From Gallionellaceae bacterium (GTDB taxonomy: Bacteria > Pseudomonadota > Gammaproteobacteria > Burkholderiales > Gallionellaceae): a DNA stretch of 64,000 nt. The position numbers and the translations under genes were made by a program. The stretch is taken from positions 2,875 to 66,874 of the forward strand of contig JAYUTK010000001.1 in NCBI GenBank assembly GCA_043755195.1. The letters are read 5' to 3'. Within the stretch, counting starts at the first letter, position 1; every line of letters starts with the position of its first letter. Under the pieces are notes generated by a model that was given only the letters and a program-made list of their open reading frames with translations, made no database searches and was not told where the DNA came from. Shown piece by piece: positions 9,643-15,420 of the stretch.

Positions 9643-10359
9643 CTATGCGTGCGGTGATTCACGCGAAGCGGCGGGCATTCCATCATCAGCATCCTTCCCA
9701 GAAAACCAATTACGCCAGACTACCACCCGGTATGCGAGCAGTGCGAGCAATACAAGGATATAAGGAAGAGAACGCAGGTCACCCGGCTTGGACATCCACC
9801 ACCAATGGGCAATAGTCAACAACGCAATCAGGTAGATCAGCCGATGAATACGCCGCCAGTTGCGTTTAAGCATGCGTATCATCTCATCGGGGGAAGTGAT
9901 GGCAAGCAACGTGAGCAACGCCAAGCTGAGTACGCCCGCCACAATATACGGCTTTTCATATAGATCGTCGGCAAGCGCATCCCAATCCCAGCTTAGATCA
10001 AATTCCAAATAAACCCCAGCATGAGCAACCCCATAAAAAAAACAAACCAGACCCAACATACGCCGCATGTGTATCATAAAGTTCCAATCCGGCAGGCGTT
10101 TACCCCAGCGCCAGCCGAGTAGCCGGAACAGGCGCAGCAACATCCTGCGCCCCGGCGTAATGAACAATGTCAGAATGAGCAATATCATCGCCCAGCGACC
10201 CGTTACCCGCTCCAAGGTTTCTAGGCCGTTAACACCTAAATTTTTATTGATGTAATCCAGCGCCAAAATTATTGCAGGCAGCAGAGTCAGCATGAGCACA
10301 GCCCACCATAGCGCTCGATAGTATTGGAAGGGCCACGTTTTTAGGGGGGGGTTAAACAT
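9643..10359 (-). CDS. msrQ: Methionine sulfoxide reductase heme-binding membrane subunit (MsrQ/YedZ)
   Basis: TGRWA...RRMLGL...HAGVY...KPYIVAG...WRRIHRLIY...H ferric-reductase-like TM motifs; follows msrP. Confidence 0.9.
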   Translation of the reverse strand: MFNPPLKTWPFQYYRALWWAVLMLTLLPAIILALDYINKNLGVNGLETLERVTGRWAMILLILTLFITPGRRMLLRLFRLLGWRWGKRLPDWNFMIHMRRMLGLVCFFYGVAHAGVYLEFDLSWDWDALADDLYEKPYIVAGVLSLALLTLLAITSPDEMIRMLKRNWRRIHRLIYLIALLTIAHWWWMSKPGDLRSLPYILVLLALLAYRVVVWRNWFSGKDADDGMPAASRESPHA

Positions 10360-10416: not shown

Positions 10417-11340
10417 TTAAAATTGCAACAGCGGGTCTATGCCTGCATAAAGATGTGCCACCTCTTCGGCATAGCCATTAAAGGGCAATGTTGGGCGCTT
10501 GCGTAACTCACCGATGCGATTCTCGCGTTTCTGTATCCAGCGCGGGTGCGGCACTTCTGGATTAACATTGCCATAAAACCCATACTCGGCAGGAGCAATT
10601 TTATTCCAGCTGGTTTGCGGCTGCTCACGCAAAAAACGAATATGGGTAATGGCCTTGGCGCTCTTGAAGCCATATTTCCACGGCAACACAATACGCAACG
10701 GTGCGCCGTTCTGCTTGGGCAGGGTGTTACCGTACAGCCCGGTTGCGACAAAAGCCAGCGGGTGCATGGCTTCATCCAGGCGCAGCCCTTCTCGATAAGG
10801 CCATTCCAAACTGCCGCCACGCTGACCTATCATTTCTTTGGAACGATGCAGACTAACAAACTCCACATATTTAGCTTGTGCTGTCGGGCGCGCCATTTCT
10901 ATCAAATGGCATAAGGGAAATCCGTTCCAGGGAATGACCATGCTCCAGCCTTCGACACAGCGCAAACGATAAATACGCTCCTCTGAAGGAAATTTTTTCA
11001 GAATGTCTTCTATGCCTATCGTAATCGGTTTGGCGACTTCACCTTCTATCACTACGTTCCAAGGCGAGGTTGTCAACTCTTGCGCGAGTATGCGTACCGC
11101 TTCTTTGTTGGTGGAAAATTCGTAGTAATTATTATAGAAAGTAATTTCTTCAAGCGTGTTGGGTTTTTCACCGGCAGCTTTAAGCGTGTCGGGATTTTTA
11201 AGCAAGGCACAAGCCGGAAAGGCCTGACGATCTACCCAACCTGCCCCCAGCAAAGCGGCAGCAGAGGCAATAAAAAGACGCCGCCCCCGGTAAACTTCCG
11301 GGGGCGTCACGTCGTTTTCAGTCAGGTGCTTGCTCGCCAC
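10417..11340 (-). CDS. msrP: Methionine sulfoxide reductase molybdo-catalytic subunit (MsrP/YedY)
   Basis: Tat motif RRLFI, YNNYYEF, Mo-ligand Cys in RLRCVEGWSM, PWKYGFKSAKAI, NPEVPHPRW. Confidence 0.95.
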   Translation of the reverse strand: MASKHLTENDVTPPEVYRGRRLFIASAAALLGAGWVDRQAFPACALLKNPDTLKAAGEKPNTLEEITFYNNYYEFSTNKEAVRILAQELTTSPWNVVIEGEVAKPITIGIEDILKKFPSEERIYRLRCVEGWSMVIPWNGFPLCHLIEMARPTAQAKYVEFVSLHRSKEMIGQRGGSLEWPYREGLRLDEAMHPLAFVATGLYGNTLPKQNGAPLRIVLPWKYGFKSAKAITHIRFLREQPQTSWNKIAPAEYGFYGNVNPEVPHPRWIQKRENRIGELRKRPTLPFNGYAEEVAHLYAGIDPLLQF

Positions 11341-11349
11341 ACGCCTTCC

Positions 11350-12390
11350 TTAAGGTTTGGGAAGATCAGGCAGGCTGACGGCCTGAAAAGGAGAAGTGAG
11401 TGCATGCAGGAATGATACCAGTGAATCCTTTTCTGCTTGGGTCAATCCTAGCTCCTTAATGCTGGGGGACAAGTCAGTCTTGATTACCCCGCCTTTGTTG
11501 TAATGTTCGACTACCTCCGTTAACGTATGGGCGGCACCATCGTGGAAATAGGGCGCATTGGTGTTGATGTCACGTAATGTTGGGGTCTTGAATGCGCCGC
11601 GCATGGATTTAACCGGCTTTTGCGCGTAACGCCCCATATCTGGTTCAGGCGCGCCATATGAGGGTAAGCCTACATTGTGGAAACCATTATCGGTAAAGTT
11701 TGGGGCAGAGTGGCACTCGGAACAATGGGCTTTTCCAGCAAACAATTTGAAGCCATCTACTTGTTGTGGCGTCATGGCTTTGGCGTCCCCCTTTACCCAA
11801 CGATCAAAGGGGGAGTTGTTGGAAATGGCGGTGCGCTCGAAAGAAGCCATAGCTTTGGACAAGGTCGCTGCGCTGATGTCCTCACCAGGGTAAGCACGAG
11901 CAAACAACATCTTATATCCTGCATTACCATTCAGCCATTCGAACAGGCGCTTGATGTTCATGTTCATTTCAACAGTAGCTTCCATTGGCCCCATGGCTTG
12001 ATCTTCCAGCGACTTCTTACGCCCATCCCACATCTGTATGGTGTTATAGGCGGTATTGATAATGGTGGGTGAGGCGCGTCCCAGCACCATGCTCTTCACG
12101 CCCTTGGCCGTGGCCTGACCGTCTGACCAGCCCAAGCTAGGATTATGGCAATCGCTGCAACTCAGGTTGCCATCGCCGGAAAGACGTGGGTCGAAATAAA
12201 GCATCTTGCCCAGCGCAACGCGATCTGCGTTTGGTTCGTTATCCGCCGGGAAGGGCACCTTATCCGGTAATAACCACTCCTTAAGGCTGGCATGGCCAGG
12301 TTGAAAAGTGTATAAATTATCATCGGCTGCCTGAACATTAAGTGCTGCAATTACCAGTATGTAACTGATCATTATTTTCAGAATACTCAT
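11350..12390 (-). CDS. Diheme enzyme of the bCcP/MauG superfamily, MauG-like
   Basis: Two CxxCH (CSDCH, CSECH), MWDGR, FKTPTLR...PYFHDG...VVEHYN with Tyr at the heme-2 ligand position; signal peptide. Confidence 0.92.
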   Translation of the reverse strand: MSILKIMISYILVIAALNVQAADDNLYTFQPGHASLKEWLLPDKVPFPADNEPNADRVALGKMLYFDPRLSGDGNLSCSDCHNPSLGWSDGQATAKGVKSMVLGRASPTIINTAYNTIQMWDGRKKSLEDQAMGPMEATVEMNMNIKRLFEWLNGNAGYKMLFARAYPGEDISAATLSKAMASFERTAISNNSPFDRWVKGDAKAMTPQQVDGFKLFAGKAHCSECHSAPNFTDNGFHNVGLPSYGAPEPDMGRYAQKPVKSMRGAFKTPTLRDINTNAPYFHDGAAHTLTEVVEHYNKGGVIKTDLSPSIKELGLTQAEKDSLVSFLHALTSPFQAVSLPDLPKP

Positions 12391-12421: not shown

Positions 12422-13438
12422 TTAATTTTGTGGCGGACGCAAGGTGTTGATATACATAATGGCGGAATCAATCTGAATGTCGGATAGTGTGCCTCCCCAT
12501 GCCGGCATATTTTCAGAGCGGCCTACCGCTGCGCTTCCTTCAGTAATGATCGTTCTCATATACTCATTGGGCAGGCGACTTTTGGTGAGGTTGACTGGTT
12601 TGCTGGAGAGCGACTGTGCTAGCGCGCCATCACCCTGCCCCGTGTCGCCATGACAGGGAACACAATTATCCTTGAACACGGCAGCCCCTTCTTTTGCACT
12701 GGCTTTAGTCGAAAGGGGGGCAGAATCTTTCTGAACTGCTGGACGCAGAGTGTTCACGTAGAGAATAACCGAATCAATCTCTGCTTCTGTCAGCGCTCCG
12801 CCCCAAGTCGGCATTCTGGGCGAGCGGCCTACCGCATCACCACCCAAGGTAATGATGGTACGCAGATAGCTGTCTGGCGCGCGACTTTGGGTCAGGTTGA
12901 CTGGCTTGGGGTTCAAACGGGAAGCCATACGCCCGTCACCCATCGCCTCCATGCCGTGGCACAACGAGCAACGGCTTAGAAAAACAGTCCGTCCGATTTT
13001 GGCCGATGGCTTGGTTTCCTTTGCAGCACTCCATGCAATTTTGAGCGCGCCCTCGGTGTCCTTACGCAAAAATGAAACAAACATGGTCACCGAATCCATC
13101 TGGGTAACGGTAAGCTCATCGCCCCACGGTGGCATCATCGGGCTAATGTCGGCAAAGTGCGAGCCTTCTGTAATAGCACGGCGCAATGATTCATCATCAA
13201 AAGTAACCCGCGGCTCCAACAGATTAGTGGCAGGGTGTTCTTTCACCGATAGCGCCAGTGCGCCCTCGCCCATGCCATCGCTACCGTGGCACAGCGAGCA
13301 CCGTTCCTGAAATATAGCGGCACCATAGCCCATACAAGGCATCGCTTCTACGCCGCAATACTCCACCGAATCGGCCGACCCCTGCAACGGCAACGCGAGA
13401 AGTAATATACTTGAGAACCACCTACGGGCGTTCATCAA
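12422..13438 (-). CDS. Periplasmic triheme cytochrome c (three class-I domains)
   Basis: CSLCH, CSLCH, CVPCH, each followed by MP(P/T/A)WG Met ligand; signal peptide. Confidence 0.9.
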   Translation of the reverse strand: MMNARRWFSSILLLALPLQGSADSVEYCGVEAMPCMGYGAAIFQERCSLCHGSDGMGEGALALSVKEHPATNLLEPRVTFDDESLRRAITEGSHFADISPMMPPWGDELTVTQMDSVTMFVSFLRKDTEGALKIAWSAAKETKPSAKIGRTVFLSRCSLCHGMEAMGDGRMASRLNPKPVNLTQSRAPDSYLRTIITLGGDAVGRSPRMPTWGGALTEAEIDSVILYVNTLRPAVQKDSAPLSTKASAKEGAAVFKDNCVPCHGDTGQGDGALAQSLSSKPVNLTKSRLPNEYMRTIITEGSAAVGRSENMPAWGGTLSDIQIDSAIMYINTLRPPQN

Positions 13439-13756
13439 TTATTCCACCTGAACAGTTAACTGCATGGAGGGATGGATGGCGCACTCTATATCAATTTGCC
13501 CCGCCGTATCGAACACAATACTTTTTGATTCGCCATTGCCGTAGGAACCCAAGTCAAATGTCTTGCTCGCCGACAGACTAAAAATATTATGGAAGAAAGG
13601 GTCGGCATTGGTAAACTTTACCGAATCACCTTTTTTTAACTTAAGCTCCTTCACCGAAAATGTTTTGTTCTTTTGTATCAATTCAACTTCTGCTCCGACC
13701 GCATGCAACGATGCCAGCATGGCGACAGAGGCAGTGATAAAGGCGATACGTTTCAT
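13439..13756 (-). CDS. Amicyanin-like cupredoxin
   Basis: Signal peptide; type-1 Cu ligands HNIF ... CAIHPSM (C-x2-H-x2-M loop). Confidence 0.88.
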   Translation of the reverse strand: MKRIAFITASVAMLASLHAVGAEVELIQKNKTFSVKELKLKKGDSVKFTNADPFFHNIFSLSASKTFDLGSYGNGESKSIVFDTAGQIDIECAIHPSMQLTVQVE

Positions 13757-13785: not shown

Positions 13786-15420
13786 TTAATATTTAAAATT
13801 CTTCATTGCTGAGACAAGCTCCTTTGCCGCCTTGTCTAGACTCTGAGATTCCCCGCCCAAGCGCGTTGCCTGATTGCGATTATCGCTGGCCAAGGTGGCG
13901 AGGTGGCTTGCTTCGCCAGCAATACTGGAAGTCGCTTTTTCCTGTTCGCTGACCAGGCTGACAATATCACGCATGGATTGACTAATGGCTTGGATGCGCT
14001 CGTTACTGACCTGAGTTTGATTGACGGCACCGCTCAATTGTTTAATGTTGCTTTCGGTCTTTTCAAGTACGTGATCTATGGCCGCCACCGTATCATTGAC
14101 GCTCTTGTCAATATTGACTACCAGCATGGATATTTCGTTAACGGCTGTACCAGTATTGCCTGCAAGTTTACGCACCTCGTCTGCCACCACAGCGAAACCG
14201 CGCCCTTGCTCGCCCGCCCGCGCCGCTTCAATGGCAGCATTCAATGCCAGCAAATTGGTCTGATCGGCAATGCCTTTAATAGTCTTGGTAATAGATTGAA
14301 TCTGGCCGGCCAAACTGGATAGTTCCCGGCTTTTTTCTGCGGTGCTTCGCATTTCTGTTTGGAAAGTCTGAAAGCTCTCTACCGTTTGCAGCAGCTCTTC
14401 ACTGGCTACCTGAGCAACGCTGGACGCGGCCGTTGCATTATCACCAGCCACACCCAGCAACTTGAATGCGTTAGATGAAGCATTGCTGAGCGAACCCGTT
14501 TGCGAATAGATCGAACCCGAACTTTCGTCCAAGCGCCCTGCTGCAGCACCCGCTCCCAACGCGCCTTCGGCAATAGCACTGGAATTATTAGAAACATCGC
14601 TTGCTGCATTCGCCACGCTTTGCACGATATTACGCAAGTTGCCGACGGTGAGGTTAATCGCTGTCTGAATTCTACCAATTTCATCCCGGCTGGCATTTTT
14701 CACATCTAAGGTAACAGTCAGGTCACCATTGGCTAACGCGACCATCGCACCTTCAATTTTACCCATGGCTCGACTCATGGAACGCGCCCATAACCATGCC
14801 ATTAACATACCTAAACCTGCGCCGAGAATACAGATCACGCCAAGAAACATCATTTGCTTCTTTGATTCCAGTTTGACGCGAGCCATTTCCGATAGCGCCA
14901 GTTCTTGGCTATGCTGAGTTACGCTCTGCGCCAAATCAGCAATGGTTTTAAATTCACTCGCAGCAACAGAATATAATTGCAGAGCACGTTCATCTTCATT
15001 GGCACGCCCTACACTGACGATTTCCAACTGCTTGGGGCGCAGTGCGGCCATCTTTTCCGCCAGTGATGTAACGTCACTATCATTTTCAAATACCTCTTTT
15101 AATGTGGCTAGGTGTTCGTCTATGCTGGCACCCGCACGTATCGAAGCAATAGCAGCAGCACGAATAGCCCCGGATTCATCAGCCGCAATCAGGGCTTGAA
15201 TATTACGATCCATTTCCACAATGCCGCGCTGTGTCGTGGTGGCGGATTCCACGCGGTGAGTGGCTTGGGTAGCAGCTTGCTCAGCCACACCGCTTTGATG
15301 CAGCATGATAAAAACGCTCAGCGCCAATATCAAGCTCATCACCGCAACCATCCCGCCAAACATGCTTAATATTTTGGTGCGCAAACGCATGTTGGAACAC
15401 ATGGACAAAATATTCTTCAT
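13786..15420 (-). CDS. Methyl-accepting chemotaxis protein (2 TM, periplasmic helical sensor, HAMP)
   Basis: [37 protein letters not shown] signalling hairpin; two hydrophobic helices. Confidence 0.96.

Follow-up and report, generated by a model that had tools for sequence, protein, structure and literature searches.

In a 64,000-nucleotide (64-kb) stretch of DNA from a Gallionellaceae bacterium (the window), the minus-strand open reading frame (ORF) at 11350-12390 encodes a di-haem protein which, judged from its sequence, is a member of the CCP_MauG superfamily on its His/Tyr, MauG-type branch and is neither MauG nor MbnH. The swap of the haem ligand is itself common, and what makes the in vivo role of bis-Fe(IV) enzymes testable is the set of conserved natural partners, the fusions to them, and the linkage to a chemoreceptor and MsrPQ. 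We give an even chance to the proposal that the protein is an H2O2-reducing enzyme which cycles between diferric and bis-Fe(IV) states and draws its electrons from the cupredoxin and cytochrome encoded with it, in an operon for oxidant response and taxis. The coordinates of the gene, its motifs and its neighbours are collected in Table 1.

The ORF matches PF03150 (CCP_MauG) with an E-value of 2.8e-56 (190.8 bits, cut-off 25.6). Its ATG is directly preceded by a strong ribosome-binding site (AAGAGGAG). Because the product starts with the Sec signal peptide MSILKIMISYILVIAALNVQA, the enzyme is expected to be periplasmic. Its class was read from the haem ligands. In PYFHDGAAHTLTEVVEHY, Tyr297 lies exactly 14 residues C-terminal of His283 of PYFH, and when the protein was aligned by HMMER with entries of the Protein Data Bank (PDB), 'pyfhdgaahtltevvehY' stood opposite 'pyfhsgvvwslkeavavM' of Geobacter CcpA. 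At the first haem, 'akGVKSmv' is found opposite 'stGHGWQk' of the same protein, and Val98 faces the His of GHGWQ. The sequences of the crystallised MauG (3L4M), BthA (6NX0) and MbnH (6E1C) were taken from PDB alignments of close homologues. The 3L4M numbering was verified (PYMH His = 280, Tyr = 294, FWDGR Trp = 93, PVEM Glu = 113), and residues 305 (His) and 397 (Tyr) of the 6NX0 chain are those numbered His371 and Tyr463 in PMC6405878. MAFFT aligned 42 residues around the Tyr without a gap and placed Tyr297 in the ligand-Tyr column of all three enzymes (MauG Tyr294, BthA Tyr463 and the Tyr of 'IDIY' in MbnH), whereas the column holds Met in CcpA and MacA and also in the cytochrome c peroxidases (CcPs) of Pannonibacter, Methylocella and N. 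gonorrhoeae. All five of these Met-type references have a distal His, which every Tyr-type reference lacks. The ligand set of the second haem is predicted to be MauG-type, with Tyr297 as the axial ligand in place of the peroxidase Met. The first haem, as read from the alignment, has no distal His and would hence be of the five-coordinate type, with the peroxide-handling Gln131, Pro135 and Glu141 kept. C-terminal of the second haem site, the query has the motif FTDNGFHNVG in common with MauG, MbnH and other Tyr-type proteins, where the alignment places NLGGTGYFPFG in the Met-type CcPs (CcpA, MacA), and His238 is invariant in the query family.

What a preliminary description of this DNA had stated about the ligands is confirmed at the level of sequence, where all its quoted strings are found. 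It had claimed MauG-type rather than peroxidase-type ligands, and the alignment, the family-wide invariance and the position in the tree (below) all agree with this. It had also read correctly the Tyr 14 residues after the His of PYxH, the replacement of GHGWQ by AKGVKS (aa 95-100), and the retention of MWDGR (aa 120-124) and of Q131..P135.....E141-M142; and its rule that bacterial CcPs have Met and a distal His, with Tyr in MauG, fits the five Met-type references and Tyr294 of MauG. In addition to the sequence alignments, an AlphaFold2 model was built without haem (mean pLDDT 66, pTM 0.67). Since pLDDT is low in the haem loops (<50 at residues 71-110 and 233-273), the model was used for fold ranking and not for ligand geometry; with Foldseek it matched CcPs, MbnH and MauG, all with a probability of 1.00.

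The ligand residues are strongly conserved. Of the 7,370 relatives that a word-based search recovered at E <1e-10, the 120 best (64-93% identity) were aligned together with the query. Because Tyr297 is invariant in all of these 121 sequences, it is no chance residue. Position 98 is never His in the set (Val in 98 sequences, Phe in 15, otherwise Ala, Asn or Met), the Cys, Cys and His of CSDCH are invariant (121/121), Trp121 is kept in 120 and Glu141 in all 121, and Gln131, Pro135 and the other haem-binding Cys and His residues are invariant or nearly so. An exhaustive search of 50%-identity cluster representatives extended the family to 21,006 clusters at E <1e-3 and 3,617 at E <1e-30. The 150 nearest clusters gave 162 aligned domains, 154 of which have Tyr in the ligand column; therefore Tyr ligation is the rule of a very large branch and no rarity. 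In a FastTree tree of 184 sequences, whose sampling was weighted to the neighbours of the query, the five Met/His references are monophyletic and the remaining 179 tips fall together, with Tyr in 171 of them. Within the Tyr-type branch, the query family stands beside chemoreceptor-linked proteins of Skermanella and Rhizobium, the Trichormus MbnH used as a control lies nearer to the query than MauG does, and the members of the non-Met group farthest from it are MauG and a BthA-like protein.

Some variants were seen among the more distant relatives. Several proteins with 46-53% identity (P0125, P0126, P0138, P0144 and others) keep the Tyr and carry Ser, Asp, Ile or Thr in place of Glu141; P0138, which is directly followed by a chemoreceptor gene, has Ile, and P0144 has Thr. 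Such proteins may be non-catalytic or sensor versions. Other relatives (P0121, P0122, P0124, P0129, P0133 and others) are 1,000 to 1,400 aa long and contain two tandem Tyr-type di-haem modules, to which P0121 adds a carbon-nitrogen hydrolase domain.

The query was compared with each of the named families of the superfamily. Canonical CcPs (Geobacter CcpA/MacA and the Pseudomonas, Paracoccus and Nitrosomonas enzymes) resemble it in fold, length and peroxidatic residues and give the highest pairwise scores; ranked by their PDB matches, bacterial CcPs come first (187 bits), followed by MbnH (127), MauG (70) and BthA (43). However, the canonical enzymes, which take electrons from small cupredoxins or cytochromes c, bind the electron-transfer haem through Met and cover the peroxidatic haem with a loop that contains His, and they form a separate clade. 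Because both ligand features (Met ligand and distal His) fail in the query, this identity was rejected.

MauG of Paracoccus denitrificans (3L4M), which forms TTQ, is similar in its two c-haems, in the Tyr placed 14 residues after the His of PY(M/F)H (Tyr294 in MauG, Tyr297 in the query), and in the absence of a distal His. The inter-haem Trp (Trp93/Trp121), the Gln/Pro/Glu pocket and the motif F-T-x-x-x-(F/Y)-H-N-(I/V)-G are shared as well. Unlike the query, which is surrounded by redox carriers, a chemoreceptor and MsrPQ, MauG is encoded in a mau cluster. The identity as MauG was rejected: a Paracoccus MauG whose gene lies in a genuine mauFBEDA-amicyanin-mauJG operon has no more than 30% identity (108 bits) to the query, which lacks two long MauG insertions, and Trp199, the surface residue that passes the hole on to preMADH, is replaced by Ala221, a position occupied by Ala or Gly across the family. 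In addition, tblastn with MauA, MauB, MauD and MauE of the Paracoccus mau operon matched nothing in the 64-kb window, nor in any of 80 related loci. The NCBIfam model TIGR03791, named 'MauG', does give the query its best NCBIfam score (318.2 against a cut-off of 443.85), and the query clade scores 304-371 bits. However, the genuine Paracoccus MauG (L081:7893-9080), which lies inside a mau operon and scores 611 bits against PDB 3L4M, reaches only 110 bits with this model. Because a true MauG scores below the query clade, TIGR03791 was rejected as evidence for a MauG.

MbnH of Methylosinus trichosporium (6E1C), which makes kynurenine in MbnP, is a nearer solved relative of the query than MauG (127 bits vs 70), and shares with it the Tyr at the ligand column and a compact C-terminal '(D/E)xY..GG' segment. 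Its family model TIGR04039 gives the query 217.2 bits against a cut-off of 362.85, while the Trichormus MbnH control scores 559, and this identity was likewise rejected. No MbnP homologue was found in the 64-kb window or in the 80 related loci, whereas the Trichormus control adjoins MbnP. BthA of Burkholderia thailandensis (6NX0), for which we know of no partners, is, like the query, a Tyr/His di-haem enzyme outside a mau operon. BthA is distinguished by a Ser that replaces the inter-haem Trp, by the lack of a Ca site, and by a long N-terminal part together with a disulfide at the C-terminus (PMC6405878), and none of these traits is found in the query. With 43 bits to 6NX0, Trp121 at the position of the BthA Ser, and 346 aa against 477 aa, the identity as BthA was rejected too. 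Public annotation is unreliable in this family: its members are called 'cytochrome c peroxidase' or 'MauG', and a Rhodoferax lacus member is publicly labelled 'MauG', yet its locus is without MADH genes.

In the window, six co-directional genes stand in the order chemoreceptor, cupredoxin, tri-haem cytochrome c, di-haem enzyme, MsrP and MsrQ. The gaps between them are 29, 0, 31, 9 and 57 bp, so that 9 bp separate the di-haem gene from msrP. Among solved single-domain proteins the cupredoxin is closest to amicyanin, and in the PDB as a whole it matches best a cupredoxin domain that is tethered to a Cu nitrite reductase. The four type-1 Cu ligands are kept across 70 aligned cupredoxins, and any Trp occurs in only 4 of 69 homologues. 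This cupredoxin is likely a direct redox partner of the di-haem enzyme, and the tri-haem cytochrome is likely a second one. At other loci, the ORF of the partner cytochrome has one CxxCH in 41 cases, two in 25 and three in 1; because one or two haem motifs are the usual number elsewhere, the triplication in the window is lineage-specific. The periplasmic domain of the chemoreceptor has no Pfam match even at E <10 and is devoid of conserved Trp, Tyr, Cys, Met and His, and BLAST detected no similarity between it and the corresponding domains of the Rhizobium and Skermanella receptors.

Table 1 Coordinates of the di-haem gene, the motifs of its product and the neighbouring genes of the operon in the window.
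Feature	Position	Strand	Basis or remark
Di-haem CCP_MauG-family enzyme, 346 aa, Tyr/His (MauG-type) class as predicted	11350..12390	-	PF03150
Sec signal peptide MSILKIMISYILVIAALNVQA, aa 1-21	12328..12390	-	From sequence
CSDCH, first haem motif, aa 78-82	12145..12159	-	Peroxidatic five-coordinate haem by homology
AKGVKS loop, aa 95-100, replacing the GHGWQ loop	12091..12108	-	Val98, without distal His
MWDGR, aa 120-124	12019..12033	-	Inter-haem Trp121, equivalent of MauG Trp93
QAMGPMEATVEMNM, distal pocket	11959..12000	-	Gln131, Pro135, Glu141 = MauG Q103, P107, E113
CSECH, second haem motif, aa 223-227	11710..11724	-	Six-coordinate electron-transfer haem; His227 proximal ligand
FTDNGFHNVG motif	11668..11697	-	Common to MauG, MbnH and other Tyr-type proteins
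PYFHDGAAHTLTEVVEHY, aa 280-297	11500..11553	-	His283 and predicted axial ligand Tyr297 (codon 11500-11502)
Methyl-accepting chemotaxis protein: two transmembrane helices, ~150-aa periplasmic helical domain, HAMP, signalling domain	13786..15420	-	
Amicyanin-like type-1-copper cupredoxin, 105 aa, ligands His56, Cys92, His95, Met98	13439..13756	-	PF00127
Tri-haem c-type cytochrome, three cbb3-subunit-III-like modules	12422..13438	-	PF13442 three times
MsrP, periplasmic methionine-sulfoxide reductase catalytic subunit	10417..11340	-	NF003767, 422.6 bits vs cut-off 207
MsrQ-like haem-b membrane subunit	9643..10359	-	PF01794; NF003831 114.8 bits, below cut-off 130

The same partners recur in other species. 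A one-genome-per-species scan gave 565 relatives, from which 80 loci were kept, the nearest being that of a Gallionellaceae metagenome-assembled genome (MAG) with 92% identity. Neighbours were counted within 4 kb in the 51 complete loci, those with at least 3.5 kb on either side. A homologous cupredoxin was found in 50 of the 51, a c-type cytochrome in 48, a chemoreceptor in 40 and MsrP in 15. The gene content is the same in Beta- and Gammaproteobacteria while the gene order is shuffled, and the related loci showed no conserved dehydrogenase able to feed the carriers. The preliminary description had called the enzyme an orphan; because its partners are conserved across both classes, and in the window form a tight six-gene operon, this term has to be given up. 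Further relatives show reduced arrangements: a Skermanella relative has enzyme, cupredoxin and chemoreceptor genes, P0138 represents an enzyme-chemoreceptor pair, and P0144 an enzyme-cupredoxin pair beside cbb3-oxidase genes. On Rhizobium plasmids, the Tyr-type enzyme (42% identical) has only a chemoreceptor gene as its partner, without the carriers. There are 140 Rhizobium plasmid records matching the query, and in the plasmid p1 of Rhizobium binae (L083, 16-8806) katG and an OxyR-type regulator are encoded within a few kb of the pair.

Two relatives carry the carriers in the same polypeptide. In P0128 (locus L094; 51% identical to the query), the enzyme is followed by a Pro/Ala-rich linker and a C-terminal cupredoxin, which is 36% identical to the window cupredoxin (E 4e-24) and has the ligand motifs HN..SLS and C-A-I-H-P-x-M. 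In P0131 (locus L095), a cytochrome-c module which is 38% identical to the repeat unit of the window cytochrome (E 5e-20) is fused to the N-terminus of the enzyme, and a separate cupredoxin gene follows. The module of P0131 reads VLCH, the first Cys of CxxCH being lost. These fusions argue for a direct contact of the carriers with the enzyme in the manner of tethered donors, a role which they fit better than that of modification targets. Comparable tethered donors are found in the YhjA tri-haem quinol peroxidases (cf. P0131) and in Cu nitrite reductases with a fused cupredoxin (cf. P0128). In contrast to these systems, the window has three separate genes, and YhjA is Met-type. The gene pair of Campylobacter jejuni DocA, a CCP homologue, and DocB, a chemoreceptor, offers an analogy only, as it was compared by description; DocA has been described as closer to the tri-haem quinol peroxidases (PMC5656828).

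A further feature of the query family is a cluster of methionines near the active haem, M120, M133, M136, M142 and M144, each of which is at least 96% conserved. M136, M142 and M144 align with Met108, Met114 and Met116 of MauG, and M120 and M133 are family-specific. In MauG, the decay of bis-Fe(IV) oxidises nearby methionines, according to the account of Yukl 2013 given in PMC6405878. Met136 is kept in all 15 complete loci with an adjacent MsrP, and the mean count of the five methionines is 4.3 in these loci vs 2.4 in the 36 loci without an adjacent MsrP. In the tree, a single large clade holds the MsrP-adjacent loci, and mixed sister pairs occur. Because the association between MsrP and the Met cluster is phylogenetically confounded, it was kept as a lead only, and the possible link of the adjacent MsrP to the Met-rich pocket is suggestive.

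In the proposed peroxidase cycle, H2O2 would bind at the five-coordinate N-terminal haem, and its two oxidising equivalents would be shared as bis-Fe(IV), by analogy with MauG, BthA and MbnH, with Trp121 expected to sit between the two haems. Two one-electron transfers, from the cupredoxin and the c-type cytochrome, would then return the enzyme to the diferric state, as the gene context suggests. The two carriers would be the physiological 'substrates' and would tie the enzyme to the respiratory chain, and the net reaction would be H2O2 reduction without the mixed-valence activation step of the Met/His peroxidases. MsrP could restore methionines that become oxidised near the active haem. For bacterial CcPs, pseudoazurin, azurin and cytochrome c are established as electron donors. 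Because the operon includes a chemoreceptor and MsrPQ, the unit is probably for periplasmic oxidant defence and taxis. The bis-Fe(IV) state is a reasonable expectation, since all three characterised Tyr/His members form one (PMC11892367, PMC6405878), and BthA both forms it and turns over H2O2 when given an electron donor (PMC6405878).

Several points weigh against this proposal. The characterised MauG-type enzymes are poor at dye-linked peroxidase activity, and their known roles are in protein modification (PMC11892367). The direction of electron flow, from carrier to enzyme, is one that we infer, and Tyr297 is assigned as a ligand from sequence, the AlphaFold confidence being low around both haems. 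MsrPQ adjoins the enzyme in only ~30% of loci, the role of the chemoreceptor is left unexplained by a peroxidase, and the P0128 and P0131 fusions are each a single metagenomic prediction, one of them on a 1.8-kb contig.

The known roles of the branch could point to a different function, in which the enzyme, like MauG and MbnH, would use bis-Fe(IV) to oxidise a residue of an operon product (the cupredoxin, the cytochrome or the sensor domain of the chemoreceptor) or of a target encoded elsewhere. The query belongs to the Tyr/His branch, the members with an assigned role all modify protein (MauG acts on preMADH and MbnH on MbnP; PMC11892367, PMC6405878), and the MbnH control from Trichormus lies beside MbnP. 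However, the window and the 80 loci gave no homologue of MauA/B/D/E or MbnP, and the relay Trp of MauG is Ala or Gly in this family. The products of the operon are also not what would be expected of targets: the cupredoxin homologues almost always lack Trp and have a complete Cu site, the sensor domain of the chemoreceptor lacks conserved Trp, Tyr, Cys, Met and His, and fusion of the enzyme to a cupredoxin or cytochrome is typical of electron donors. We consider protein modification unlikely. The 'modifying enzyme with an unknown substrate' of the preliminary description can therefore be followed in part: its MauG-type ligand set stands, a high-valent state is a reasonable expectation, and the modifying activity is not favoured, given that MauA/B and MbnP are missing nearby, and given the change of Trp199 and the fusions. 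The readiest alternative from pairwise scores, an ordinary Met/His bacterial CcP in which the Tyr is incidental, is supported by the PDB matches (187 bits for CcpA vs 70 for MauG) and by the Foldseek TM-scores, which are 0.61-0.65 for MacA/CcpA, 0.58 for MbnH and 0.56-0.59 for MauG. The residues speak otherwise, with Met at the ligand column in 0 of the 121 sequences and no distal His in the query, and the tree places the query among the Tyr-type proteins, apart from the five Met/His references; moreover, the nearest MAG encodes a separate Met-type CcP in addition. An ordinary CcP is thus highly improbable.

It is also conceivable that the enzyme serves chiefly as a peroxide or redox sensor for the chemoreceptor, whose helical periplasmic domain would read the redox state of the enzyme or the cupredoxin by contact, with detoxification secondary. 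The pairing of enzyme and chemoreceptor outlasts the carriers (enzyme and methyl-accepting chemotaxis protein only in Rhizobium and P0138, with the cupredoxin in Skermanella), and the chemoreceptor is adjacent in 40 of the 51 complete loci. The sensor domain fits no ligand-binding family and has diverged past BLAST recognition while the pairing was kept, the catalytic Glu is replaced in some relatives (by Ile in P0138 and Thr in P0144), and bis-Fe(IV) states persist for minutes (PMC6405878). On the other hand, Glu141 is invariant in the query family (121/121) and all catalytic residues are kept, which argues that catalysis is under selection; a contact between enzyme and receptor is conjectural, and about one fifth of the complete loci have no chemoreceptor within 4 kb. 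We regard a mainly sensory role as doubtful, although it is compatible with the peroxidase reading, and the two are not mutually exclusive. A more elaborate and quite improbable scheme makes the enzyme the peroxide-sensing input of the chemoreceptor: a long-lived bis-Fe(IV) state would decay onto the Met cluster, the helical domain of the receptor would read the oxidised enzyme or cupredoxin, and the carriers and MsrPQ would reset the system. If true, oxidant in the periplasm would be signalled to chemotaxis by a protein, and bis-Fe(IV) would have its first physiological role outside cofactor biogenesis.

The enzyme described here can be set against what has been reported. 'MauG-type bCcPs' are an established class (PMC11892367), and uncharted Tyr-bearing clusters were already flagged in a sequence similarity network study (PMC6405878). 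Among the Tyr/His di-haem enzymes, only MauG and MbnH have a known role, in both cases protein modification, and BthA is called 'cryptic' (PMC11892367). Our literature search found no paper on the query subfamily or its operon, nor one joining MsrP, CcP, cupredoxin and MauG. The present analysis shows that the Tyr-type branch is very large and that one big subfamily comes with a cupredoxin and a cytochrome c of its own, in some cases as fusions with the enzyme. As likely natural redox partners are thereby supplied, the view that bis-Fe(IV) enzymes act as real cellular peroxidases becomes directly testable, and the operon would tie bis-Fe(IV)-type chemistry to chemotaxis and to methionine-sulfoxide repair.

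Some additional observations were made on the genomic setting. The nearest Gallionellaceae MAG encodes a second di-haem CcP at L001:11121-12152, ~2.6 kb beyond radA, which is Met-type (PYLHDG...VLIM, with Met 14 residues after the His). Its counterpart is absent from the 64-kb window, where tblastn matches only the Tyr-type gene at 34% identity. Because the L001 contig has the Met-type CcP too, Tyr-type and Met-type enzymes can coexist in the Gallionellaceae lineage. The stretch matches only DNA runs from sediment and freshwater metagenomes, with no RNA run listed among them. Finally, a stem-loop with a 9-bp all-GC stem (CGCCCCCGG...CCGGGGGCG) followed by a T-run is located at 11282-11306 on the minus strand, 35-58 nt into the msrP coding sequence, and it may act as an attenuator or a processing site that separates the di-haem gene from msrP, or be a coincidence.

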